Made by a program: the position numbers and the translations under genes. From a virus: 64,000 nt of DNA. Shown here piece by piece: positions 2,076-62,827 of the stretch (its first letter is position 1; the number at the start of each line of letters is the position of its first letter). The notes under the pieces are model-generated. The model was not told the origin of the DNA. It saw nothing but the letters and a program-made list of their open reading frames with translations, and did no database searches. Location: UHGV virus genome UHGV-0123226. One strand, 5' to 3'.

Positions 2076-2086
2076 GCGGAAAGCGA

Positions 2087-2503
2087 GTGAAGAAGATGAT
2101 TCCAAAGTTTAGAGCGTGGGATAAGAAATATAAAAAAATGATGAAAGTTAATCAAATTGACTTTGAGAAAAAAACAGTTTGGCTTGAGGCTGATAATGGA
2201 GATCATGAGAATAGGCATACGTTGACACGAGAATTTAAAGATGTGATCCTCATGCAATCAACAGGCTTGAAAGACAAGAACGGCGTTGAAATTTTTGAGG
2301 GTGATATTGTTCAGTATCGAGATGGAGAATATAGCTACCTAGGTATCGTTAAAAGAGACTGTTATCAATTTTTTATCGATGGAATAGAACCAGATGACAA
2401 CTATGATTTTATTGATGTTTCTAATACTTTTGATGGAACTAGTTCTTTAGAAATACTCGGAAATATTCACGAGAACCCGGAGCTATTGGAGGTCGCAGAA
2501 TGA
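2087..2503 (+). CDS. YopX family phage protein
   Basis: N-terminal IPKFRAWDKKYKKM and C-terminal LEILGNIHENPELLE are hallmarks of YopX. Confidence 0.7.
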   Translation: MKKMIPKFRAWDKKYKKMMKVNQIDFEKKTVWLEADNGDHENRHTLTREFKDVILMQSTGLKDKNGVEIFEGDIVQYRDGEYSYLGIVKRDCYQFFIDGIEPDDNYDFIDVSNTFDGTSSLEILGNIHENPELLEVAE

Positions 2504-2657
2504 GCTTTAAAGAAGCTTTCAAAGATGAATATATTGAAATTGACATAAGTAATAACGAAGAAGCAAAAGCTTTCTTTGAAGAAAATGTATATAAAAGGGA
2601 AAGAGAAATATTAAAGAAGTCAGAGGGCTTGTTTAAATGTATTGAGGAGGAAGCGGA

Positions 2658-2918
2658 ATGAGTTATGAAAATTACAAAAATTGTGTTGAAGAGGTAAAAG
2701 ACAAGAACGGTAAAGTAATTAAATATCATGACGTTGTTCGAACGTTACGAGGTGAAATTTTATTAGTCGGTTTTGGAGTAAATCACCATCATAAAACAAA
2801 AGGTTTGAATGCCTTTAATAATTTTATTGGTGCTCATGATTGGTTAGATGTTTACCCAGATGGAGAATTAGAAATCCTAGGAAATGTTGACTTTTTTGGG
2901 AGGGGCAGCGATGAATAA
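2658..2918 (+). CDS. hypothetical protein with a YopX-like C-terminus
   Basis: 86 aa; ELEILGNVDFFG resembles the YopX C-terminal motif. Confidence 0.35.
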   Translation: MSYENYKNCVEEVKDKNGKVIKYHDVVRTLRGEILLVGFGVNHHHKTKGLNAFNNFIGAHDWLDVYPDGELEILGNVDFFGRGSDE

Positions 2919-3483
2919 ACAAGAAAAAGAAGATTTAATTCAAGCGCTCTATGATATCGGAGGCTGCGATGCAGAAGATGAATGGTCAAGAGGTTATGAC
3001 GATGGAGTAAATGCAGCAATTGAGGTCATAAAAGAACTCAAAGTACAGGGAAAAGTCATATTTTCACATGAAGAGAAATTTGTGGCAGATTGGCTTGATG
3101 GTTTAAGAGGCCAAATCAGTAATGTTAAGTTAAATTCTGGTGCTGTTTTCATGACGTTCATCGGCAGACAGTTAGAGCGGTACTATGATGAAGAATACTC
3201 GTTTTTAACTGAAAAAATAGAGAGCTGGCTTACAGTTCCAAAAAATAAAGTAAAACTAATGAGCGCCATTGATAACGGCTACGAAGTCGAGAAAGAACAG
3301 TTGTATAAAGTAGTTATTGACCATAAATATTTAGTGCAACTTTTTAGTGGTAGAACTGATGCTAGACTTGTTGAGTATGAAGAACTAACAAATTGGCACG
3401 ATTCAGCATATAAACTTACTGAATCAGTAATCAAAGCAATTGATGAGCGCTATTGGGTGTTTGCTGTGAAGGTGGAGGGATAA
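2884..3483 (+). CDS. hypothetical phage protein
   Basis: 199-aa ORF with RBS; no recognisable motif. Confidence 0.5.
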   Translation: MLTFLGGAAMNKQEKEDLIQALYDIGGCDAEDEWSRGYDDGVNAAIEVIKELKVQGKVIFSHEEKFVADWLDGLRGQISNVKLNSGAVFMTFIGRQLERYYDEEYSFLTEKIESWLTVPKNKVKLMSAIDNGYEVEKEQLYKVVIDHKYLVQLFSGRTDARLVEYEELTNWHDSAYKLTESVIKAIDERYWVFAVKVEG

Positions 3484-4083: not shown

Positions 4084-4575
4084 ATGACGTTGGTACCAGA
4101 AATAGATTACAAAAAAACAAAAGATAAAGTTCGTAGATTATTAAAAAATTGTCGAAGCCTACAACGAATGAGTGGTGTAAAAGTACATTTGCAATCTCCT
4201 ATATTATCTGATATGCCGCGACACCATAGTAACAGAAATAATGCTGAGGAAAGTATGGTTCATTTATTTAGATACACGTCTAAGTTATCAATAGAGGCAG
4301 CTAGACAACGTAGAGAGCAAGTCAGAGCGATAGAGCATACGTTAAAATCGTTGCCTGATGTCTCGAGAGAAATATTATACTATTCATATTGTGTACCGAA
4401 TCCATACAGCATGGCTAAGTTGAGTAGAACAATAAAAGTATATCGTGAAAACGAGTTTGGCCAAGTGGAAGAAATAAGCTATAGCATTAAAAATATTGAA
4501 AAGCTGAAAGACAATGCGTTAATTGAATTTGCGGAAGCCTACCATTACGAAAATTTGATAGTTCAAAAAAATTAG
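4084..4575 (+). CDS. arpU: ArpU-family phage late-gene transcriptional regulator
   Basis: 163 aa. Lies between the early genes and the packaging genes, the usual position of ArpU or RinA. Sequence features typical of ArpU-family proteins (LLKNCRSLQRM, REILYYSYC). Confidence 0.65.
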   Translation: MTLVPEIDYKKTKDKVRRLLKNCRSLQRMSGVKVHLQSPILSDMPRHHSNRNNAEESMVHLFRYTSKLSIEAARQRREQVRAIEHTLKSLPDVSREILYYSYCVPNPYSMAKLSRTIKVYRENEFGQVEEISYSIKNIEKLKDNALIEFAEAYHYENLIVQKN

Positions 4576-4736
4576 GGTTTTTTTAGGGATTATTTAGGGT
4601 TTTTAACTCGAAATCCGTTGTATTATGGTAGTATCAAAAGTCAAAGAAATGGACACAGTACACACTTTCTCGTTTAGTCACCGTTCACTTTGTCTTTCGA
4701 TGGTCACTTGCAGACTTACGTTCTCAATAAAATGAA

Positions 4737-4762
4737 GTGAGGTGAATAACCTCCTCTTTTTT
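4737..4762 (+). terminator. weak rho-independent terminator downstream of arpU
   Basis: GAGG..CCTCCTC followed by TTTTTT. Confidence 0.35.
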
Positions 4763-5167
4763 CTACAGGTTTGCAAGGGACACAAATAGTTGCTAGGGAT
4801 GCAGTAGTAACTACCTGATTCATACTAGTCGAGGTTAGGTATATTGCTCTATCCCATCATATGACGATAAGAACATTAACCAGATCTCTGCGGCAGCTGC
4901 TTACGCACGAGAGCAATTCCTAAACTCATAGAGTAGCAGCTAGGTACGTTTAGGATAAACTTAATCAATTGTTTTTGCTGGTGTTTGATTGATTGGTCAC
5001 TGTGGTGGAATATAGACCTTACAAGGTGCAAATCCTTGCCAGTGACATAATCATTTTAGCCGTGAAAGTCTGCGAAAGCTACATCCTGAAGGGAAAACAT
5101 TCTGACGAGAGTGTGTAAAGGTTAATTTGATTTATTAGCAATTGCTAGAAGGTCGCTCCTTCTGGTT

Positions 5168-5240
5168 TGGCGTGTAGCATTGTGGTAATGCAACTGATTA
5201 CGTGTGAGATAAGATGCGGGTTCGAATCCTGTCACGCCAA
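5168..5240 (+). ncRNA. tRNA-like element (acceptor stem, D-arm and canonical T-arm GGTTCGAATCC; no anticodon stem foldable by hand)
   Basis: GGCGTG/CACGCC acceptor pairing, T8, D-stem GCAT/ATGC with a GG loop, and a T-arm GCGGG-TTCGAAT-CCTGT. No 5-bp anticodon stem and no encoded CCA. Followed by a GTAGC-ata-GCTAC hairpin and a T-run. Confidence 0.3.
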
Positions 5241-5360
5241 TAGGTAGCATAGCTACTTAAATAAATTAGGAAACGTCAATAGATGTTTCTATCCTTCACG
5301 AGAGGCATCCACTTGCTGGGTGTCTCTTTTTATACATAAAATTACATAGGAGGTGAGGTC

Positions 5361-6134
5361 ATGGCAAAGTACACAGAGTGGCTGACTGACGAAGGGTTAA
5401 TTAAAATCGAAGGGTGGGCGCGAGATGGCCTCATCGATAAGCAGATAGCCCAAAATATCGGGGTAGCTTATTCAACTTTCAGAGAATGGGTAAAAAAATT
5501 TCCAGCACTTTCGGCATCCTTAAAAAGAGGAAAAGAAGTTGTTGATAGACAAGTTGAAAATGCTTTGTTTAAAAGTGCTATAGGATACGAATACACTGAA
5601 ATTACTAAAGAAAGAATGGCAGATAACGGGCAAAAGAAACGACATAATGGTGAATCATCTTTGACAGAAGAAGAGTGGGAAACAGCACTTGCTTATTTTA
5701 ATTACAGTTGTGCATATTGTGGTAATTCAGATGAGATGACTAAAGACCATCTTGACCCATTAAAAAATGGCGGCGAGTTGACTTTTTCAAATGTAGTTCC
5801 TGCATGTCGTTCTTGTAATTCAAGCAAAAAGGATCATCAATGGCTTTCGTGGTATCAAAACCAAGACTTTTACGACAGATACAAAGCAAATAAAATCACT
5901 GATTATATATCATTCGTGTTAAGCTTTCCGAAAAAAGAAGAAAACACAGAGCTAGTTGTTACAAAAGAAATAACTAAATTGGTAGCCCCTAATCCAACTG
6001 CGGCTATTTTCTGGTTAAAAAACAGAAAACCAGACAAATGGAGAGATCGAAGAGAAACCGAGGTTTCAGGATTGCTTAATATTTCCGATGCAGCAGTCGA
6101 AATCGAGCAATTTTTCGAGGATGATTCTACATGA
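5361..6134 (+). CDS. terS: terminase small subunit with an embedded HNH endonuclease domain
   Basis: N-terminal HTH region (MAKYTEWLTDEGLIKIEGWARDGL...STFREWVKK) and C-terminal AIFWLKNRKPDKWRDRRE are typical of TerS. A roughly 100-aa insert carries CAYCGN..DHLDPLKNGG..PACRSCNSSK, an HNH zinc-finger nuclease motif. Overlaps the terL start. Confidence 0.7.
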   Translation: MAKYTEWLTDEGLIKIEGWARDGLIDKQIAQNIGVAYSTFREWVKKFPALSASLKRGKEVVDRQVENALFKSAIGYEYTEITKERMADNGQKKRHNGESSLTEEEWETALAYFNYSCAYCGNSDEMTKDHLDPLKNGGELTFSNVVPACRSCNSSKKDHQWLSWYQNQDFYDRYKANKITDYISFVLSFPKKEENTELVVTKEITKLVAPNPTAAIFWLKNRKPDKWRDRRETEVSGLLNISDAAVEIEQFFEDDST

Positions 6135-7423
6135 GCCCTAAAAAGCGAAAATATTTGAACTTAATCAAAACGAACCCGGTAATTTTTGGAAATTTAGTTG
6201 GGTTTACCGACTTAGCAGAACTGCACAATGATTGGTTAAAGTCTTTTTTGTTCGAGAAAGACGATCAAACACTATTGGCTCATCGTGGCTCATTTAAAAC
6301 AACTACATTGGCGATTGCTATTGCATTGTTGATGGTTCTTTTTCCCAATAAAAATATTATCTTCTTACGTAAGACCGATACAGACGTCGTAGAGATTATT
6401 TTACAAGTGGCTAAGGTTTTATCTAGCAAATACTTTAAAACGCTTGTATTTGCATTATATGGTGTTGAATTGGTGCTTTTGAAAGAGACTACAACAGAAA
6501 TAGATACCAACTTAAAAACATCTACCCGGGGAACATCTCAATTACTTGGTATGGGGATTTATGCTTCATTAACAGGTAAACACGCGGATATCGTTATCAC
6601 TGATGATATTGTTAACATTAAAGACCGAGTAAGTCGTGCTGAACGAGAGAGGACGAAACTTCAGTATCAAGAATTGCAGAATGTTAAAAATCGCGGTGGT
6701 CGTTTTATTAACACAGGTACACCATGGCACAAAGAAGACGCTATATCTAAAATGCCTAACGTTAAGAAATTCGATTGTTACGAAACAGGATTAATTGACA
6801 AAGAACAACGTCAAGCATTGCAACAAGCGATGACACCATCATTATTTGCGGCAAACTATGAGCTAAAACATATCGCTGACAGTGAATCGCTATTTACTGC
6901 GCCAACCTATACCGACAGCATTAATCTTATTTATAACGGTGTAGCACACGTCGATGCGGCTTATGGTGGCGATGACAGCACAGCCTTTACCATCTTCAAA
7001 GAACAAAAGGATGGAACAATTATTGGATATGGTAGAAAGTGGCAGAAACATGTGGATGATTGCTTGCCTGAAATTTTGCGACTGCATCAACACTACCAGG
7101 CAGGAACTTTCCACACAGAAACGAACGGAGACAAAGGGTACTTAGCTAAGAATTTACGTGAGTGCGGTCAGTTTGTTACTGAATATCATGAATCTATGAA
7201 TAAATTTATTAAAATATCTACTTATTTGCGTAAGTACTGGCACTTGATTATTTGGTTAGAAGATACAGATAAAGAGTACATTGCCGAAATTTTGGACTAT
7301 ACAGAAAATGCAGAACATGACGATGCACCAGACAGCGCGGCCAGTCTCCTTAGGACCTTAAGCTTGAAGAATCCACAATCATTAGAGGAACGTATGGACG
7401 CTGCCAAGTTCTTCTTTGGATAA
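6131..7423 (+). CDS. terL: terminase large subunit
   Basis: 430 aa. Walker-A-like region (AHRGSFKTT), an ATPase plus RNaseH-like nuclease arrangement, and a position between terS and portal. Confidence 0.85.
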   Translation: MSPKKRKYLNLIKTNPVIFGNLVGFTDLAELHNDWLKSFLFEKDDQTLLAHRGSFKTTTLAIAIALLMVLFPNKNIIFLRKTDTDVVEIILQVAKVLSSKYFKTLVFALYGVELVLLKETTTEIDTNLKTSTRGTSQLLGMGIYASLTGKHADIVITDDIVNIKDRVSRAERERTKLQYQELQNVKNRGGRFINTGTPWHKEDAISKMPNVKKFDCYETGLIDKEQRQALQQAMTPSLFAANYELKHIADSESLFTAPTYTDSINLIYNGVAHVDAAYGGDDSTAFTIFKEQKDGTIIGYGRKWQKHVDDCLPEILRLHQHYQAGTFHTETNGDKGYLAKNLRECGQFVTEYHESMNKFIKISTYLRKYWHLIIWLEDTDKEYIAEILDYTENAEHDDAPDSAASLLRTLSLKNPQSLEERMDAAKFFFG

Positions 7424-8999
7424 AGAAAGGGATGAAAAAGTGAATAAAAAGAATGAAGTAACGTTTTTAAGAAATCACAGGTATCATAAAAATGCGAATG
7501 CGGTTTTTAGAATGGCACAGGAAGATTTTGAAAGCCTAGAATTTGATAGTGAAACATGGATTACTCAACTAAAAAGATTTGTTAATCGACATCTTGCTGA
7601 ACAAGTGCCACGTTTAAAAGAGCTTAAACGCTATTACTTAGCAGATAATAACATCAAATATCGTCCTCCAAAAACTGATGAATACGCTGCCGACAATAGA
7701 ATAGCAAGTGATTTTGCTAGATATATCACTATTTTTGAGCAAGGCTATATGTTGGGACAGCCGGTCCAGTACAAAAATGAAAATGATGAACTGCAAGAAA
7801 AAATCGATGACTTCAATAAGCAAAACAACGAAGCCTATCACAACGTACTTATCAAAACCGATTTGTCAATCTATGGCAGAGCCTACGAGTTGGAAACAAT
7901 TGCTTTACAAGATGAACAAGCGTTTGTAAAACTAGTTAAATTAAACCCAGAGCAGACATTCATTGTATATGATGATACGACTGACAGTAATTCTTTATTT
8001 GGTGTTTATTATTATTCAATAGATTATGGCGATGGGGTGCGTAAGGATTTTATAAACGTTTATACATCTGACATGTTATACATCTATGTCAATGACAACC
8101 AGAATAAAAAGGGATTGACATTATTAGACTTTGAAGATTATGCGTTTAATGGCGTACCTATTAATGAATTCGCAAATAATGAAGACCGTACAGGTGCATA
8201 CGAACCTGTTTTAGATTCAATTGATGCTTATGATTTGTCTCAATCTGAGTTAGCTAATTATCAGCAGGACACAATGGACGCTATTTTGCTTATCAAAGGA
8301 AATCCATACACAGGGACTGCTCAAAATGACTTAGATGAAGATGGTAATATTGTTCCTAATTCACGGTTAGCTGTTTCTTTAGCTTTCAAAAAAGCACGAA
8401 TAATGATTTTAGATGATAATCCAAATCCAAACGGATCAGAACCTGATGCAAAATATCTCATAAAAGAATATGACTCAGAAGGTGCAGAGACTTATAAGAA
8501 AAGATTGGTTAATGATATTTTACGATTTACTTTTACACCAGATACATTGGATGCCAATTTCAGTGGTACACAATCAGGTGAGAGTATGAAATACAAGTTA
8601 ATGGCTGCGGATAATCGGCGGGTTATGCAACAGCGCTTATTTGAAAAAGGTTTGATGAGACGATTGCGCCTAGCTATTAATATTTGGCAAATAAAAGGGA
8701 ACGATTCAACAGCTTACAATGATATTAATAATACGAATATTATATTTACTGCGAATGTTCCTAAATCAGATAACGAGATTGTTTCATTAGCTAGTCAATT
8801 AGTTGGACAAGTTTCAGATGAAACACTATTTGAAATATTGTCTACAGTAACGGGTGTCAATCCCGATGTCGAACTAAAACGTATTAAGGAAGAAACAAAT
8901 GATAAGCCAGAACCACGAAGGCCTGAAGTGAATAAGAATGAAATGGGGAATGAAGACGATGAACGAGAAGCAGCTAAAAGAATTAATGAAGATGAATGA
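7416..8999 (+). CDS. portal protein (SPP1 gp6-like)
   Basis: 527 aa, immediately after terL, with an acidic C-terminus; the size and position fit a portal. Confidence 0.8.
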   Translation: MDKERDEKVNKKNEVTFLRNHRYHKNANAVFRMAQEDFESLEFDSETWITQLKRFVNRHLAEQVPRLKELKRYYLADNNIKYRPPKTDEYAADNRIASDFARYITIFEQGYMLGQPVQYKNENDELQEKIDDFNKQNNEAYHNVLIKTDLSIYGRAYELETIALQDEQAFVKLVKLNPEQTFIVYDDTTDSNSLFGVYYYSIDYGDGVRKDFINVYTSDMLYIYVNDNQNKKGLTLLDFEDYAFNGVPINEFANNEDRTGAYEPVLDSIDAYDLSQSELANYQQDTMDAILLIKGNPYTGTAQNDLDEDGNIVPNSRLAVSLAFKKARIMILDDNPNPNGSEPDAKYLIKEYDSEGAETYKKRLVNDILRFTFTPDTLDANFSGTQSGESMKYKLMAADNRRVMQQRLFEKGLMRRLRLAINIWQIKGNDSTAYNDINNTNIIFTANVPKSDNEIVSLASQLVGQVSDETLFEILSTVTGVNPDVELKRIKEETNDKPEPRRPEVNKNEMGNEDDEREAAKRINEDE

Positions 9000-24909: not shown

Positions 24910-26211
24910 ATGAAAAAGAAAATTTTAGTAGGAGCGCTTGTCGCTCTATTTTTTATGCCTTTAAATGTATTAGCTGCAAGAGGCGATCAAGGTGTGGATT
25001 GGGCGATTTATCAAGGTGAACAAGGTCGCTTTGGCTATGCACATGATAAATTTACTATCGCTCAAATTGGCGGCTACAATGCTAGCGGTATTTATGAACA
25101 ATACACATATAAAACGCAAGTGGCAAGTGCTATTGCCCAAGGTAAACGTGCGCATACCTATATTTGGTATGACACTTGGGGAAACATGGACATTGCGAAA
25201 ACAACAATGGATTACTTTTTGCCACGTATTCAAACGCCTAAAAATTCCATCGTTGCATTAGATTTTGAACATGGAGCGTTGGCTAGTGTTCCAGATGGAT
25301 ATGGAGGATATGTAAGTTCAGATGCCGAAAAAGCAGCAAATACAGAGACAATTTTGTACGGTATGCGCAGAATCAAACAGGCTGGCTATACTCCAATGTA
25401 TTACAGCTATAAGCCATTTACACTAAATCATGTAAACTATCAACAAATCATCAAAGAGTTTCCTAACTCTTTATGGATTGCTGCGTATCCTATTGATGGT
25501 GTGTCACCAAATCCATTGTATGCTTATTTCCCAAGCATGGATGGTATTGGCATTTGGCAATTCACATCCGCTTATATTGCAGGTGGTTTAGATGGTAACG
25601 TAGATTTAACAGGAATTACGGATAGTGGTTATACAGATACAAATAAACCAGAAACGGATACGCCAGCAACAGATGCAGGCGAAGAAATTGAAAAAATACC
25701 TAATTCTGATGTTAAAGTTGGCGATACCGTCAAAGTGAAATTTAGTGTTGATGCTTGGGCAACTGGCGAAGCTATTCCAGATTGGGTTAAAGGAAACAGT
25801 TATAAAGTGCAAGAAGCAACTGGAAGCAGAGTATTGCTAGAAGGCATTTTGTCATGGATTAGCAAAGGTGATATTGAACTATTACCAGATGCAACAGTTG
25901 TCCCTGATAAGCAACCAGAAACAACACATATAGTTCAACATGGCGAAACATTATCAAGCATTGCTTACCAATACGGTACCGATTATCAAACTTTAGCTTC
26001 GTTAAATGGATTGGCTAATCCAAACCTTATTTACCCTGGACAAGTTTTGAAAGTAAATGGATCAGCAACAAGTAATGTTTACACAGTCCAGTTGGGTGAT
26101 AATTTATCAAGTATAGCGGCTAAACTTGGCACGACTTATCAAACATTGGCAGCTTTAAACGAATTAGCAAATCCTAACTTGATTTATCCGGGTCAAACGT
26201 TGAACTATTAA
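24910..26211 (+). CDS. endolysin: signal peptide + GH25 muramidase + 2x LysM
   Basis: N-terminal Sec-like signal ([22 protein letters not shown]), a GH25 core ([16 protein letters not shown]) and two C-terminal LysM repeats ([13 protein letters not shown]..., [13 protein letters not shown]...). Confidence 0.9.
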
Positions 26212-28071: not shown

Positions 28072-29253
28072 TTAAAAATTTACATAGCTACTGAAAGCAT
28101 CTGTTGCTTCTTTAGTAACTTCATCAGAAACATGAGTGTAAGTATCCATAGTTATTTGTAAAGAAGAATGTCCTAAACGTTCTTGGATTATTTTAGACCT
28201 AACATTATCTGATTCGAATAATAATGTTGCGTGGGTATGCCGAAAACCATGACAACCAATAGAATGTAAGTTAGCCTTTTCTGCCAATCTTTTGGAACGT
28301 TGGTAAATGTCTTGACTTCGGAACATGGTACCATCAATTTTTGTAAAAATGAGTTGTGTTTTAAACCCACCTTTTTTCATTAAAGCTTCACGCTGTCTAA
28401 GTTTCCATTTTTTTAAGATATAAGCAGTCTTGTCATCAAAAGAAATTTTACGAATAGAATTGGGAGTTTTAGGATCGTTTATAGTCAATCCATTTGTACT
28501 GATAGCAGTAGTTTTATTTATATTAACTACCTGCTTTTTTAAATCAATATCATTCCAATTCAATGCTAAAGCTTCACCAACACGTATACCAGTAAAAGAA
28601 AGTAAGCGAAAAATAGCACAGTCTAAGTCAGCATAGTATTTTAGAACTAAACTTTCTTCTTTGGCTTGATTGGCAATACTATCAGCTGTATTTAAGAAAT
28701 GTTCCAGTTCGTCTTTTGTATAGAACTTTCTTTTTGTATTCTTTTCTATTTTCTTTAGCGAACTAGGCTTAGTTATTTTCTTAAATGGGTTTGAATCTAT
28801 TATTTCTAAACCAACAGCATAGTCACAAACACGAGAAGCATAACTCAAAAGTACTTTTCCCATTTCATTCTTTTTATACCATTCATTAACAGATTTTTGC
28901 ACGATCTTGACTGTTAAACGCTCAAGTCGCATTTTCCCAAATGTGGGTAAAATGTGTTTTTTCATACGTCGTTCAGTAGCTATGAATGTGGATTCCCTAA
29001 CTGTTTTTTTGTATTCGTCCAACCACATATAATAAACTTCTTCAAAAGTGGTTAAACGAGTATGCTCGTTAGCTAGGTTTCCATTATCAAAATCTAATTT
29101 TTTTTGATTAAGCTTGAGCTGTGCTTCTTTTTTTGTATTACAGTTTCTGATAGTGACATTAATTTGTTTTCCAGTTAAATAATCTACGCCTAAATAGGCA
29201 GTTACTTTCCAGTATTTTTTTCCTTTTTTTGTATATTGTTTAAAAGTTGCCAT
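28072..29253 (-). CDS. int: tyrosine recombinase (phage integrase)
   Basis: 393 aa; C-terminal catalytic region with HGFRHTHATLL and the LGHSSLQITMDTYTH motif containing the catalytic Tyr. Confidence 0.9.
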   Translation of the reverse strand: MATFKQYTKKGKKYWKVTAYLGVDYLTGKQINVTIRNCNTKKEAQLKLNQKKLDFDNGNLANEHTRLTTFEEVYYMWLDEYKKTVRESTFIATERRMKKHILPTFGKMRLERLTVKIVQKSVNEWYKKNEMGKVLLSYASRVCDYAVGLEIIDSNPFKKITKPSSLKKIEKNTKRKFYTKDELEHFLNTADSIANQAKEESLVLKYYADLDCAIFRLLSFTGIRVGEALALNWNDIDLKKQVVNINKTTAISTNGLTINDPKTPNSIRKISFDDKTAYILKKWKLRQREALMKKGGFKTQLIFTKIDGTMFRSQDIYQRSKRLAEKANLHSIGCHGFRHTHATLLFESDNVRSKIIQERLGHSSLQITMDTYTHVSDEVTKEATDAFSSYVNF

Positions 29254-43792: not shown

Positions 43793-44194
43793 ATGCGTGT
43801 ATTAATTAGAAGTTCAGCATCTGGTACAGAGTATTGGGATACCGAAGAAAAAAGAAATGTGTTTGTACCTAAAGGTCAAGAACCTGATTTTGAAGTTACT
43901 GAAAATCCTGAATCAATGCTAAGTAAAGAAGCTGATTTACATATTGGTGGTTTACCAATTACTGTAGGAAATGTAACGGTTGATACTGATGGAATTAAAG
44001 GTGAACGATTATTAACAACTGCAAGTGCTGATGATGAAGAACAAGATGAACTTGTTCCGTCTGATGAATCTGTTGTATTAGAAGAAATGAATGTAAAAGA
44101 ATTGCGTGAATATGCAAAACGAAAAGGTATTGAGATTCCAAGTGCTGCACGTGCAAAAGGTGACATTCTCAATATTATTAAAGAATCTGAATAA
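43793..44194 (+). CDS. hypothetical protein with C-terminal Rho-N/SAP-like motif
   Basis: MNVKELREYAKRKGIEIPSAARAKGDILNII resembles the Rho N-terminal helix-extended-helix fold. Confidence 0.3.
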   Translation: MRVLIRSSASGTEYWDTEEKRNVFVPKGQEPDFEVTENPESMLSKEADLHIGGLPITVGNVTVDTDGIKGERLLTTASADDEEQDELVPSDESVVLEEMNVKELREYAKRKGIEIPSAARAKGDILNIIKESE

Positions 44195-44568
44195 TGCGCT
44201 ATTGTCAGTTTGAAGGTTGCTCTAATACAACAGAAAAAGGGGCTTATTGTTCCGAACATGCTAGGAAGTCTAGAAAAAAGAAAAAACCAAGCAATGTTTA
44301 TCATCATGACAACAAATCATTTTATCGAACAAAAGCATGGCAAGATGTCGCTGACTTTGTCTATGAAAGAGAAAACGGCTGTTGTCAAAGGTGTGGTCGT
44401 TTTGTGTTTGGAAGGCAAGCACATCGGCATCATATAATACCAATCAAGAAGAACGAAATGCTCAAACTTGATCCAAACAATATTCGTTTATTGTGTCCAA
44501 AGTGTCATGTGATTGAGGAAAATGAAGCGGATGAGAAAAAAGTTTTTCCATCTTATTTTAAAAAATGA
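44194..44568 (+). CDS. HNH endonuclease (packaging-associated)
   Basis: CxxC...HHIIP...N...CxxCH zinc-finger HNH motif, immediately upstream of terS. Confidence 0.85.
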   Translation: MRYCQFEGCSNTTEKGAYCSEHARKSRKKKKPSNVYHHDNKSFYRTKAWQDVADFVYERENGCCQRCGRFVFGRQAHRHHIIPIKKNEMLKLDPNNIRLLCPKCHVIEENEADEKKVFPSYFKK

Positions 44569-44678: not shown

Positions 44679-45131
44679 ATGACCACAAAAGCGCAACGCA
44701 AAGCGATTATTGATGAAAAAGTTAATCACGAAAAAACGCGAATTTTAGAAATTATGCGCAAGTCTGATTTATACACTATTACTCTTGATCCATTGATTGA
44801 ATCATACTTGGATATTTTTGAAGTTTACCAATACAAATACATGCTGTGGAAAGAAAAAGGATTTCCCGAAACCCAAAAAACAACAAACAAGGCTGGAGCT
44901 ACTAACAATAGCAAGCATCCACTAGCGCAACAAGTCGAAGTTTGGGCCGATAAAAAAATGAAAGCATTGGATTTATTAGGATTGACCAATAAGTCAAAAA
45001 CAGGCAGACAAATTACTGGTGGTTCAACAGCTAGAGCAGATGAAGAAATGAAACGGCCAGAAGAAAAGCCTGTAGATGAATTGGCAGAACATCGGAAAAA
45101 ATGGCGTAAAAAGGCAGGGAATGAAACATGA
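44679..45131 (+). CDS. terS: terminase small subunit (P27 family-like)
   Basis: 150 aa, basic, overlapping the terL start, preceded by HNH. Confidence 0.7.
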   Translation: MTTKAQRKAIIDEKVNHEKTRILEIMRKSDLYTITLDPLIESYLDIFEVYQYKYMLWKEKGFPETQKTTNKAGATNNSKHPLAQQVEVWADKKMKALDLLGLTNKSKTGRQITGGSTARADEEMKRPEEKPVDELAEHRKKWRKKAGNET

Positions 45132-46855
45132 TTGAACCTGGTGTAAATTATGCTGATTTATTTGCGAAAGAAGTTCGAAAGCATTCTAAGAAATATCCAA
45201 AAACGGTTCGTTTAGCAATAGATCGTTGGTATCGATGGAAGAAACGAAAAGATATTTGGTTTGATGTTGATCGTGCAAATGAAATGATGGACTGGGTAGA
45301 ATCTTTTATTGTTCATACAAAAGGCGATATGGTAGGTAAACCATTTATTTTAGAGCCATGGGAAAAATTCATTTATTCTTGGATTTATGGCTGGGTAAAA
45401 GAAAATGAAAAAGGGCAAGTAGTCCGTGTTACTCGTGAGGCATACGTACAAATACCAAAGAAAAATGGGAAAACATTAATAGCCGTAGGGGCGTTGGGGT
45501 ATGCTATGTATGGCGAAGGTGCCTTATCTGTCGATTGCTATGCATGTGCTTCTGATTTTGCGCAAGCTCAGTATGCTGCTAAGCCTTTTGCCGCTACTAT
45601 ACTAAATAATCCAGTGCTATTAGATGGGACTAAAATATTTAAAGGTCCAAAAGGCACCGTTTCAAGTATTACGTATGACTATTTACATGGAGATATGGCT
45701 TATACAAATAAGTTTATTGTTCAGACAAAAAACATTGATAACATAGAAGGTTCCAATCCATATTTTGTTTTAAATGATGAGCTGCATAAACAAGAGAAAA
45801 TGGAGCAGTACGATAACTTTAAATCTGCACAAATTTCATTGCCACAGCCGTTAATGTTTAATATTTCTACAGCTGGTAAAGGAAGTAGTTCGGTTGGTAT
45901 TCGTGTTTATAAAGAAGCAAAAGAAGTCTTGAAGCGTGATGATAATGATTCAAACTTTGTTTTGATTTATGAACCAAATAAAGGATACGATTGGACAGAT
46001 AAAAAAGTTTGGGAAATGTGCAATCCTAACTGGGGAATATCTGTTGATTTGTCTGCTTTAGAATCAGCCTTTAAAACTGCGCAACGTTCCGCTCACTCGA
46101 AAGCTGAATTTTTAACGAAGCATTTAGATGTGTTTGTGAATGGTGCAGATAATTTCTTTGAACAAGATCAAGTGGAACCGTGTTTGGTTCCCACAAATGA
46201 ATTAGGAAACTTAAGTGGGGAGCCTTGTTGGATTGGTTTGGACTTATCTAAAAGCCGAGATTTAACTTGCGTATCATTAAATTTTCCTACATGGGATGCC
46301 GAAGGAAGAGCGATACTCAAAGTAAAACAATTATATTTTATTCCTAGTGAAAATATTGATTTTCGAGAAAAGGAAGATAATGTGCCGTATTCTGAATTAG
46401 CAGAACAAGGATTTGTTGAATTTTGTGATGGTAAGTTAATTGACCAAGAACAAATATTTCATTTTATTGAAGATTGCATGGATTTTTATGATGTTCAACA
46501 AGTCAATTATGATCCAGCAATGAGTGACCGATTAGTTGAAAAATTGGAAAATTTAGGCTTGGAATGTGTGCAAGTTGATCAGTACGCAAGAGTATTGAAC
46601 TCGCCGCTTGAAGATGCCGAGCGATTATTTTATGAGCAAAGGATTATGTTTGATAATCCTTTATTTTTGTATTGCGCTTTAAATGTGGTTGTCAAAATGG
46701 ATTTTCAAGGTCGTAAAGTACCAAGTAAAAACCAGTCAAAGAAAAAGATCGATGGATTTGTTGCTTTTCTTTGTGCGCATAAGGAAACAATGGATCAAAT
46801 GATTGATGTAAACGAAGATGATATGGATGAATATTTAGATTCTATCTATCGATAA
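45128..46855 (+). CDS. terL: terminase large subunit
   Basis: 575 aa, with ATPase and nuclease domains, in the canonical position. Confidence 0.9.
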   Translation: MIEPGVNYADLFAKEVRKHSKKYPKTVRLAIDRWYRWKKRKDIWFDVDRANEMMDWVESFIVHTKGDMVGKPFILEPWEKFIYSWIYGWVKENEKGQVVRVTREAYVQIPKKNGKTLIAVGALGYAMYGEGALSVDCYACASDFAQAQYAAKPFAATILNNPVLLDGTKIFKGPKGTVSSITYDYLHGDMAYTNKFIVQTKNIDNIEGSNPYFVLNDELHKQEKMEQYDNFKSAQISLPQPLMFNISTAGKGSSSVGIRVYKEAKEVLKRDDNDSNFVLIYEPNKGYDWTDKKVWEMCNPNWGISVDLSALESAFKTAQRSAHSKAEFLTKHLDVFVNGADNFFEQDQVEPCLVPTNELGNLSGEPCWIGLDLSKSRDLTCVSLNFPTWDAEGRAILKVKQLYFIPSENIDFREKEDNVPYSELAEQGFVEFCDGKLIDQEQIFHFIEDCMDFYDVQQVNYDPAMSDRLVEKLENLGLECVQVDQYARVLNSPLEDAERLFYEQRIMFDNPLFLYCALNVVVKMDFQGRKVPSKNQSKKKIDGFVAFLCAHKETMDQMIDVNEDDMDEYLDSIYR

Positions 46856-46873: not shown

Positions 46874-48100
46874 TTGAAGCTAAGAGATAGACTTTCAAAT
46901 GCAGTATATGGATTTTTGGAAAAGCGTGGCTGGATTGAAGATATTTATGGCAATGTAACAAGATATTCACAACGTTTTGTTAACGATTCTTCTATTATGG
47001 AATCGTCTGATGTTTATGAATTGGTACAAGATATTTCTAATCAAGTTGCACTAGCAGAGCCAGTAGTAATTGGCCCTGATGGCGAAGAAGTCAAAAACCA
47101 TTTCTTGCTAAACATATTGAAAAATCCTAATGATTATTTAACTGGTTTTGAATTTGCAAAGCTTGAAACAAATACATTGTTAATCAATGGAGAAGCTTTT
47201 CCTATTACAGATAATGACCAGTTACATTTAGGATATGGTGTTCAAACGAAATTAGATGATCGTTTGATTGAAAAATTTTCAATGAATGGCCAACCAATAC
47301 CAGGGAGTATGATTCGTCATATAAAAAATATTGGTGTGGATTCCTTAAAAGGTGCTGGAATTATTGATCTTGCAAAAAGCACGCTAGAAGGTGTTTTAAG
47401 TGCTGAAAAGGTTTTGACAGAAAAATATAAGAAAGGCGGCTTGCTCGCTTTCTTGTTAAAGCTGGATGCGCATATCAATCCAAATAACAGCGCTCAACAA
47501 AAGATAGTAAAAGCTATTTTAAATCAGTTGGAAGAAACGCAAGATAATGATAGTCATTCAGTTAAAATGATTCCTTTGGGTAAAGGATACTCAATTGATA
47601 CTTTAAAAAGCCCAATTGATGATGCAGCTATTCTTAATTATTTGGGTGTTTACAAAAAAGACCTAGGAAAATTTTTAGGAATAGATGTAAATACTTATCA
47701 AGCATTAATGAGAACAGATATTGAAAAAGCAATGATGTATCTGCACAACAAAGCAATTAAACCAATATTAAAAAATAAGAGCGAGCATTACTCGGCTCTT
47801 TTTTTTGTGCCTAATTCTGGTTATCGAGTGGAATGGAAAATTAATATTTTGGACTTTGTACCTTATTCCACCAAAACAAATATTGGGTACAACATTGTTC
47901 GAACTGGTATTACCAGTCCTGATAATGTGGCAGAAATGCTTGGTTTTCCTAGACAAAATACTAAAGCAACACAAGCCGTCTATATTTCAAATGATTTAAC
48001 GGAAATCGGCAAAAAGAATGCTACCGATAATTCATTGACAACAGAGGATGACTTGAAGGGAGGTGGTAAGAATGAAGAAACAGGAAATTCGGACATTTGA
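46874..48100 (+). CDS. portal protein (HK97 family)
   Basis: 408 aa, following terL. Confidence 0.8.
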   Translation: MKLRDRLSNAVYGFLEKRGWIEDIYGNVTRYSQRFVNDSSIMESSDVYELVQDISNQVALAEPVVIGPDGEEVKNHFLLNILKNPNDYLTGFEFAKLETNTLLINGEAFPITDNDQLHLGYGVQTKLDDRLIEKFSMNGQPIPGSMIRHIKNIGVDSLKGAGIIDLAKSTLEGVLSAEKVLTEKYKKGGLLAFLLKLDAHINPNNSAQQKIVKAILNQLEETQDNDSHSVKMIPLGKGYSIDTLKSPIDDAAILNYLGVYKKDLGKFLGIDVNTYQALMRTDIEKAMMYLHNKAIKPILKNKSEHYSALFFVPNSGYRVEWKINILDFVPYSTKTNIGYNIVRTGITSPDNVAEMLGFPRQNTKATQAVYISNDLTEIGKKNATDNSLTTEDDLKGGGKNEETGNSDI

Positions 48101-61525: not shown

Positions 61526-62827
61526 ATGAAAAACAAAATTTTAGTAGGAGCGATAGTCGCTCTATTTTTTATGCCTTTGAATGTATTTGCTGAAAAAGGT
61601 GACCAAGGCGTTGACTGGGCTATTTATCAGGGGGAACAAGGTCGTTTTGGCTACGCACATGATAAATTCGCTATTGCCCAGATTGGTGGCTACAATGCTA
61701 GCGGTATTTATGAACAATACACATATAAAACGCAAGTAGCAAGTGCTATTGCCCAAGGTAAACGTGCGCATACCTATATTTGGTATGACACTTGGGGAAA
61801 CATGGACATTGCGAAAACAACAATGGATTACTTTTTGCCACGTATTCAAACGCCTAAAAATTCCATCGTTGCATTAGATTTTGAACATGGAGCGTTGGCT
61901 AGTGTTCCAGATGGATATGGAGGATATGTAAGTTCAGATGCCGAAAAAGCAGCAAATACAGAGACAATTTTGTACGGTATGCGCAGAATCAAACAGGCTG
62001 GCTATACTCCAATGTATTACAGCTATAAGCCATTTACACTAAATCATGTAAACTATCAACAAATCATCAAAGAGTTTCCTAACTCTTTATGGATTGCTGC
62101 GTATCCTATTGATGGTGTGTCACCAAATCCATTGTATGCTTATTTCCCAAGCATGGATGGTATTGGCATTTGGCAATTCACATCCGCTTATATTACTGGT
62201 GGGTTAGATGGTAACGTAGACTTAACAGGTATTACTGATAATGGCTACACAGATACCAATAAGCCAGAAACGGACACGCCAGCAACAGATGCAGGTGAAG
62301 AAATCGAAAAAACACCGAATTCTGATGTTAAAGTTGGCGATACGGTCAAAGTGAAATTTAACGTAGATGCTTGGGCAACAGGCGAAGCTATTCCAGATTG
62401 GGTAAAAGGAAACAGCTATAAAGTACAAGAAGTAACTGGAAGCAGAGTATTGTTAGAAGGTATCCTGTCATGGATTAGCAAAGGCGATATTGAATTATTG
62501 CCAGATGCAACAGCTGTTCCTGATAAACAACCAGAATCTACTCACGTAGTTCAATATGGTGAAACATTATCCAGCATTGCGTATCAATATGGAACAGACT
62601 ATCAAATCTTAGCTTCGCTAAATGGATTGTCTAATCCTAATTTGATTTACCCTGGCCAAGTTTTAAAAGTCAATGGATCAGCAGTAAGCAACGCTTATAC
62701 AGTCCAATATGGTGATAATTTATCAAGTATTGCGGCTAAACTTGGCACGACTTATCAAGCTTTAGCACAACGGAACGGATTAGCTAATCCTAACTTAATT
62801 TATCCTGGTCAAACATTGAACTATTGA
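61526..62827 (+). CDS. endolysin: signal peptide + GH25 + 2x LysM (near-identical to 24910..26211)
   Basis: Same architecture as the prophage 1 lysin, with long stretches of identical nucleotides. Confidence 0.9.

Follow-up and report, generated by a model that had tools for sequence, protein, structure and literature searches.

A small terminase subunit with a nested HNH nuclease module in a phiFL2-like Enterococcus faecalis prophage, and its horizontal exchange between terS alleles

The small terminase subunit (TerS) is the textbook non-enzymatic subunit of the phage packaging motor. In cos phages, a free-standing HNH protein of the HK97 gp74 type is needed for cos cleavage (Kala et al. 2014, cited in PMC9611059). 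Homing-endonuclease genes cluster at terminase genes and recombination boundaries, and the authors of that work considered homing and packaging roles not to be mutually exclusive (PMC10448857). Also described is the ShiLan domain, which lies in a phage methylase gene, carries an HNH and homes without splicing (PMC11855218). We analyzed a stretch of 64,000 nucleotides (nt) of the UHGV virus genome UHGV-0123226 (the window), in which a gene designated terS-HNH (5361..6134, plus strand) contains a complete small HNH (beta-beta-alpha-metal) module that is nested in-frame at the tip of a beta-hairpin and translated within TerS. TerS, phage HNH proteins and homing nucleases are already known, and the nested form is abundant in databases under a wrong name.

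Each of the described HNH systems shares some features with this locus. The gp74-type proteins are also small HNHs of the beta-beta-alpha-metal fold (~100-125 amino acids, aa) encoded within a packaging module, and also have a CxxC, then (D/H)H, then N, and then a second CxxC plus N or H. However, gp74-type genes are found together with a P27/Terminase_4 TerS, a large terminase subunit (TerL) of the Terminase_1 type and an HK97 portal, whereas the HNH of terS-HNH is nested in a different TerS family, belongs to a pac-type module with a Terminase_6-like TerL and an SPP1 portal, and is absent from near-identical viable phages. The likeness to ShiLan is that the host frame stays open, that the element is neither an intein nor an intron, that its occurrence is sporadic and that it carries an HNH. 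In ShiLan, however, the HNH and its host gene use different frames and what is read in-frame is a loop, whereas the HNH of terS-HNH shares the host frame and ends up in the mature TerS polypeptide.

The terS-HNH gene encodes 257 aa and, according to the open reading frame (ORF) list and the sequence, is the only TerS gene of prophage 1, one of two prophages in the window. A sequence-only reading of this DNA had taken it for a normal TerS of about 150 aa interrupted by roughly 100 aa with an HNH motif, and the ORF and all motifs quoted there are indeed present. The TerS family phrog_309 matched the protein with an E-value of 1.3e-64 (aa 1-255 to profile positions 135-288); just 154 profile positions were used, so that about 100 residues are inserted with respect to the family. 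The N-core was 81-99% identical to the annotated TerS of phiFL2A and phiFL4A, and we conclude that the gene encodes a genuine phrog_309-family TerS. Alignment with insert-less homologs, which the same reading had proposed for defining the boundaries, involved phiFL2A gp34 (149 aa), Tuc2009 TerS (153 aa) and many enterococcal proteins of 149-153 aa, and fixed the insert at aa 85-199 (5613..5957, plus strand; RMADNGQKKRH...NTELV), i.e., 115 aa or 345 nt. The insert is in-frame and replaces a 7-aa hairpin turn, LTEAGME, which is flanked by ...GYEYTEITKE and VTKxVTKQVAPNPTAAIFWLKNRKP; the boundaries in terS-HNH read ...GYEYTEITKE / RMADN...NTELV / VTKEITKLVAPNPTAAIFWLKNRKP. The TerS N-terminal part (aa 1-84, 5361..5612, plus strand) consists of a predicted helix-turn-helix (HTH) DNA-binding region, a long helix and the first beta-hairpin strand; HTH_Tnp_1 and HTH_23 Pfam matches at aa 21-72 were weak and sub-threshold. 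The C-terminal part (aa 200-257, 5958..6134, plus strand), which is conserved with insert-less TerS proteins in the alignments, has the returning beta-strand, a conserved IFWLKNRKP helix and an acidic C-terminal helix.

The catalytic core of the insert (aa 117-158, 5709..5834, plus strand), with C117-x2-C120, D129-H130, N153 and K156, matched Pfam HNH (PF01844) with an E-value of 1.8e-11 and 44.4 bits (cut-off 21.4), and there was an additional HNH_5 match (38.1, cut-off 27.5). Together with the phrog_309 match, this places the observation well outside what chance would give. An AF2 model of the 257-aa protein contains helices 3-54 and 60-74, strand 76-84, strand 199-208 and helices 212-227 and 241-254. 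The insert forms an independently folded domain between the strands 76-84 and 199-208 (pLDDT of 88-98 in 10-residue blocks over aa 101-190), whose HNH core has strands 126-130 and 145-149 followed by helix 150-156, as in the beta-beta-alpha-metal fold. The rest of the architecture is that of the HNH-less protein, the AF2 model of which shows the HTH, the long helix, a plain beta-hairpin (strands 76-86 and 89-100) and the C-terminal helix. The hairpin tip is one surface loop and presumably a permissive site at which TerS function is retained. The best solved relative of the insert was the Gme HNH nicking endonuclease 4h9d, an Mn-dependent enzyme (phmmer E-value 1.2e-9; Foldseek probability 1.0). 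HNH domains of Cas9 were likewise top structural relatives, and Cas9 chains headed the Foldseek list. No foreign signature was seen in the base composition of the insert when compared with its flanks (GC 0.359 versus 0.38-0.39).

Residues C117, C120, D129, H130, G138, N153 and K156 were invariant in 130 of 130 insert-bearing homologs, as were R94, L101, W106 and W164. The second CxxC pair (C149, C152) and N144 are likewise present in the window protein, and their conservation is indicated by per-position marks over 121 sequences. Among enterococcal alleles, dN/dS of the insert was 0.03-0.07 at dS up to 1.26, which is equal to or below that of the TerS core. These data show that purifying selection keeps the catalytic residues of the module intact, and a TerS with an intact nested HNH looks functional.

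General precedent exists for self-splicing elements at such a position: inteins and introns are frequent in phage terminase genes, and the terminase annotation in Tuc2009 is oddly split (L004 2613-4016, orf31/orf33, with a 195-nt ORF labeled 'terminase small subunit' followed by a 5'-incomplete terL); the large-terminase gene of that phage looks split or interrupted, possibly by an intron. In terS-HNH, we detected no Hint or intein domain in Pfam, only HNH and HTH; the junctions KE/RM and LV/VT are wrong for an intein, the junction residues (E|R ... V|V) having neither a Cys/Ser start nor a His-Asn end followed by Cys/Ser/Thr, and 115 aa is too short to hold a Hint domain plus an HNH. An Rfam scan of 4500-7000 at E-values up to 1 gave only a tRNA and no group I or group II intron, and a 345-nt insert is too short for a nuclease ORF plus a ribozyme core. 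Two further explanations are a zinc ribbon native to this TerS family, from which the cysteines would derive, and two genes separated by an undetected frameshift. Most family members lack the whole segment, and the ORF is continuous and recurs as such in hundreds of contigs and no fewer than 120 clusters. A self-splicing element, a sequencing artefact or a native zinc ribbon is therefore extremely improbable. Some members of the 'HNH endonuclease' cluster are 172 aa long and might be regarded as a natural short or separate form. However, the full 257-aa frame is open there, and their Met86 start is a gene-calling artefact; one of the cases is a scaffold whose parts are linked through Ns. Nor is Met86 conserved, since phiSS12 reads ERILDT at that position.

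Clues to the history of the module came from HNH-less relatives of prophage 1. Its packaging and head module is 96.5-97.4% identical in DNA over 8 kb to those of the HNH-less phages phiFL2A and 1_EfsPF36, the alignment being broken into two or three pieces. In 30-nt-bin identity profiles and junction alignments, the HNH cassette and ~80 nt of downstream terS form a recombinant patch (5613..6040, plus strand). The window is ~99% identical in DNA to an HNH-less locus (P0122) from the terS start to nt 5612 and again from ~6041 into terL, and the patch from 5613 to ~6040 is ~87-97% identical per 30-nt bin to the cassettes of P0002 and P0003, whose N-domains are just 74-76% identical to that of the window and which adjoin a different, 462-aa TerL. 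The left junction is exactly at the insertion point, after AAAGAA (5612|5613), and the right crossover is located in TGGAGAGAT, at about 6040, ~80 nt past the insert. A second, independent patch was found between P0001 and the HNH-less P0138, whose backbone has another TerL, of 462 aa; the right-hand tracts in the two events are ~60-90 nt.

Protein comparisons gave a similar picture. The N-core of the window protein is 100% identical to those of the HNH-less P0122 and P0140, yet in the HNH it shares 97-98% identity with P0003, the N-core of which is only 74% identical. Over 8385 pairs, identities of the HNH and the N-core were poorly correlated (Spearman rho 0.21): 13 of the 31 pairs with HNHs at least 90% identical had N-cores of 80% identity or less, and 15 of the 30 pairs with N-domains at least 90% identical had HNHs of 80% identity or less. 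In the same pairs, dS was 0.27-0.31 in the insert versus 0.79-1.23 in the N-core. Rough parsimony on an N-domain tree required 59 state changes for 320 sequences, compared with ~101 for random labels. The insertion point is identical across Enterococcus, Streptococcus, Clostridia and Paenibacillus alleles. No consistent 'immunity' substitutions were observed downstream of the insertion site between HNH-bearing and HNH-less alleles, and repeats or pac-like motifs inside terS were limited to short, chance-level matches. These comparisons show the HNH module to be a cassette that is exchanged horizontally between terS alleles.

We favor, with confidence that is evenly balanced, a homing-like selfish nuclease that is expressed as part of TerS and is probably targeted by TerS's own DNA binding. 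The cassette is sporadic at one conserved site in an essential gene, its phylogeny is incongruent with that of its flanks and the co-converted flanks are short, all of which are characteristic of homing. It shares with phage HNH homing endonucleases the sporadic occurrence in close relatives, the position in or next to an essential packaging gene, the location at a boundary of genetic exchange and the incongruent phylogeny. The sequence-only reading had mentioned a domain-level homing-endonuclease insertion; this suggestion fits the patchy, incongruent distribution better than its other proposal (a chimera supplying nicking activity), but it is not proven. As the pac site is usually in or near terS in headful phages (PMC12403621), the proposed course of events would be as follows. 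When related phages are co-induced or infect the same cell, TerS-HNH would nick or cut those of their terS alleles that have no HNH, and recombinational repair from the HNH-bearing copy would convert the empty alleles, taking along a short downstream stretch of terS. The HNH domain would be expressed through the host protein and probably be guided to DNA by it. Such borrowed targeting is proposed because no DNA-recognition domain is present in the cassette itself, whereas TerS binds the pac region. The nuclease would be dispensable for packaging itself.

The closest whole-cassette relatives outside TerS are free-standing HNH proteins, SAP3_17 of Staphylococcus phage SAP3 (182 aa, 47% identity to the cassette) and gp27 of Lactococcus phage 63301, corresponding to phi31 ORF4 (gp27 246 aa, 39% identity). 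The matches span 80-83% of the insert and take in the flanking helices KRRH...SLTxxEW and WYxxQxYYDR. The SAP3_17 gene is located just upstream of terS, and 63301 gp27 lies among the packaging genes of Lactococcus P335 phages. Both differ from the cassette in being encoded separately, outside TerS, and in having additional N-terminal regions of ~85-140 aa; compared with them, the cassette is a catalytic module only, without a DNA-recognition module of its own. An HNH nested in another fold (RuvC) is also known from IscB and Cas9, and the best NCBIfam matches of the insert (5613-5957; aa 64-176) were IscB (E-value 1.1e-9) and Cas9d (2.6e-7). However, both matches are far under the cut-offs (37.8 bits versus 175), and neither a RuvC nor a guide RNA is present; what is shared is limited to the HNH fold and the nested topology. 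For the TerS part, no solved relative was identified by sequence, a PDB profile search giving generic HTH matches only. Sf6 gp1-like TerS (PF16677, GP3_package; 3hef, 4dzj) and the B. cereus prophage TerS 2ao9 also combine an N-terminal HTH, as predicted for terS-HNH, with a long helix, are encoded immediately upstream of terL and belong to pac-type phages, but this similarity is weak (Foldseek E-value ~1, probability 0.66-0.75, 66 columns; faint PF16677 matches).

A second cassette, of ~42 aa and without a nuclease, occurs at the same site. This helical cassette bears a conserved HPEAT motif and is free of cysteines. We observed it in phiFL4A gp30 (L001 3001-3567), in Streptococcus phage IPP27 (L005 2462-3082) and in L017, L020, L034, L040, L053, L073, L077, L082 and L086, with a sporadic distribution in Enterococcus, Streptococcus, Listeria, Lysinibacillus, Bacillaceae and Clostridiales. 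A decayed HNH as the origin of this 'mid' cassette was rejected (hhalign probability of 2%, with only the returning strand aligned). The hairpin tip is a general hot spot for cassettes. These loops also bear on another explanation, namely that the HNH is a passenger domain with some other role or none, moved by ordinary recombination at a permissive hairpin tip; it might act on competing DNA (satellites, co-resident prophages or the host) or be tolerated baggage. Consistent with it are the three loop states on a single N-core backbone (short in P0122, mid in P0140/phiFL4A and HNH in the window), loop lengths that range from ~20 to 139 residues across the family, and the generally mosaic nature of terS, with a Spearman rho of 0.39 between N-core and C-core. 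On the other hand, baggage would be expected to gather catalytic substitutions, of which there were none in the 130 sequences, and a link to a defense family was not found, PADLOC giving only generic HNH similarity with E-values of 1e-7 or weaker. We regard a passenger as quite improbable.

Several observations weigh against homing. The ~42-aa nuclease-free cassette forms a clean presence/absence patch in the same P0122 backbone, which implies that ordinary recombination between conserved flanks can move cassettes without a self-encoded nuclease; as this cassette is equally polymorphic, the presence/absence pattern alone is not diagnostic of homing. The closest donor found is just ~93-95% identical in DNA to the cassette of the window, so that the transfer was not very recent, and gain of the cassette cannot be read apart from its replacement or loss in such alignments. 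No degenerate HNH copies were present among the 130 sequences at the catalytic residues checked; since a homing cycle of gain, decay and loss predicts decayed copies, the uniform conservation could mean a benefit to the phage. The fusion also differs from phage HNH homing endonucleases in that the HNH is neither encoded separately nor carried by an intron, that it has no DNA-recognition module itself and that no decayed copies were seen; such a module and the occurrence of decayed copies are both characteristics of homing.

Selection on the nuclease could alternatively reflect a packaging-accessory function, the main rival of homing. In this explanation, a co-opted HNH, 8-10 copies of which would form a ring attached to the TerS oligomer, would nick or cut at or near pac and help TerL start headful packaging, by analogy with the free-standing HNH of HK97-like cos phages, and the patchiness would be due to module shuffling. 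It agrees with the catalytic residues being intact in all 130 homologs and the insert dN/dS as low as that of the TerS core, with the best solved relative (4h9d) being a prophage HNH nicking enzyme, and with the free-standing relatives being encoded immediately beside terS or other packaging genes. The allele is also very common in E. faecalis (of three 257-aa variants, that of the window occurs in identical form on 115 public contigs, and its sisters are on 380 and 107), and homing and packaging roles are compatible (PMC10448857). However, the isolated phage phiFL2A has the same module without the insert, its TerL (gp35) being 99.1% identical in amino acids to that of prophage 1, and the insert was present in just 8 of the 500 confirmed family loci among the matches listed from species-representative genomes. 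TerL of the HK97 type (Terminase_1) is known to need an HNH partner, whereas the TerL partners of HNH-bearing terS comprise at least three PHROG types, all of them pac-like and none of the Terminase_1/HK97 type. The existence of near-identical HNH-less phages indicates that the HNH is not required for packaging; phiFL2A we take to be viable and pac-type in view of its GenBank record. The proposal of the sequence-only reading that a TerS-HNH chimera supplies the nicking needed for packaging is weakened by the near-identical insert-less phiFL2A module and the pac-type TerL. A necessary packaging role is unlikely, and the accessory role as a whole is rather doubtful, though homing and help in packaging are not mutually exclusive.

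A broader version of the homing proposal, to which we lend still more tentative credence, is that terS-HNH represents a mobile element of a new class, a 'nested homing domain' that is in-frame and needs no splicing, that has shed its own DNA-recognition module and whose specificity is borrowed from the essential protein that it parasitizes. As TerS would bind pac in or near its own gene, the fusion would be targeted automatically to related terS genes and would convert them. As a corollary, a ring of nucleases on the TerS oligomer could also affect pac cutting or the exclusion of competitor phages.

We examined the occurrence of this architecture in public data. Proteins of 250-290 aa with the insert formed at least 120 clusters at 90% identity, and named members came from several species of Enterococcus, Streptococcus suis, Lactococcus lactis and Carnobacterium; further carriers among species-representative genomes were Lachnospiraceae, Acetobacterium, Peptoanaerobacter, other Clostridia and Paenibacillus. 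Most TerS relatives were 149-153 aa long and without the insert. Among 50,697 phage records, the architecture was present in only two, S. suis phages phiSS12 and phiLP081102. A search of a set of 1.84 billion representatives with an HNH-less query was uninformative on insert frequency, the best 150 matches all being 93-230 aa; longer proteins are probably absent among those 150 because a match that is split receives a lower score. Nine other HNH-bearing loci had a typed downstream gene, and in these the HNH-bearing terS is directly followed by a TerL gene. Full-text literature searches yielded no published description of a TerS with an embedded HNH.

This family is systematically mis-annotated, its insert-bearing members being named "HNH endonuclease" in nearly all cases and terminase only rarely. 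The public name of the window protein is 'HNH endonuclease [Enterococcus faecalis]', and all named members of its cluster were called "HNH endonuclease" or "McrA"; among the listed homologs, terminase labels were present only in P0027 and P0030, and no NCBIfam model was found for this TerS family, with or without the insert. HNH-less family members were also mislabeled as "HNH endonuclease", 'transposase' or 'helix-turn-helix domain-containing protein', and TerS of IPP27 (IPP27_00029, L005 2462-3082) has no HNH domain, yet is annotated as 'putative HNH endonuclease'. In some E. faecalis genomes, the gene is called from Met86 as a 172-aa protein, which leaves the TerS N-terminal domain unannotated. 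Besides IPP27, errors that spread from the HNH label concern L097 and L098 (2501-3019) and the cluster members P0394, P0395 and P0401. In the metagenome scaffold L099 (~2085-3019), an HNH-less terS allele is joined to an HNH-bearing allele through Ns, suggesting that both alleles coexist in one sample and confused the assembly.

Prophage 1 is a phiFL2-like, pac-type prophage of Enterococcus faecalis. The stop codon of terS-HNH overlaps the start of terL (ATGA at 6131-6134), which encodes a pac-type large terminase of 430 aa (6131..7423, plus strand; phrog_38 E-value 3.7e-84 and a sub-threshold Terminase_6N match) and is followed by an SPP1-type portal gene (7416..8999, plus strand; PF05133 E-value 8.4e-97). 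No second TerS was found in the module, and upstream there are only an ArpU-like late-gene transcriptional activator (4084..4575, plus strand; phrog_248 E-value 1.2e-27) and, between this activator and terS, a tRNA-Arg (ACG; 5167-5241). The protein at the equivalent position in phiFL2A, gp33, carries an ArpU superfamily annotation, and phage IPP27 has a tRNA-Ser at the position equivalent to that of the tRNA-Arg (L005 2112-2202). Searching with a profile of the insert revealed no further HNH-like ORF in the vicinity of the prophage 1 terminase, in line with the sequence-only reading.

Prophage 2 (~28000-64000) is of the HK97-like cos type and appears to be directly adjacent to prophage 1 in a tandem arrangement. 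The free-standing HNH plus TerS that had been ascribed to it were recovered: the HNH is encoded at 44194-44568 (PF01844 E-value 1.2e-13) and a Terminase_4/P27 TerS at 44679-45131, followed by a TerL of the Terminase_1 type (TerL_ATPase/TerL_nuclease, 45128-46855) and an HK97-type Phage_portal (46874-48100); an integrase-like ORF is located at 28072-29253 on the minus strand. Thus, prophage 2 has the composition that defines gp74-type systems, and prophage 1 does not. Near the end of each prophage there is a 433-aa ORF (24910-26211 and 61526-62827), the two proteins being 94.5% identical; they probably represent a shared lysis gene, although the packaging modules of the two prophages are unrelated.

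Hundreds of TerS genes carry an "HNH endonuclease" or "McrA" label, and as a result of such mis-annotation, the small terminase is missed when prophages and pac types are predicted in genomes of Enterococcus, Lactococcus and Streptococcus. The acceptance of a folded 115-aa domain by the hairpin tip may be useful for engineering TerS fusions. Together, phiFL2A, which lacks the insert, and the common insert-bearing E. faecalis prophages provide a ready experimental pair, which bears on whether a nuclease may spread in-frame inside an essential protein without splicing, borrowing the DNA specificity of that protein. A widespread natural TerS with an intact nuclease challenges the picture of TerS as a non-enzymatic subunit.

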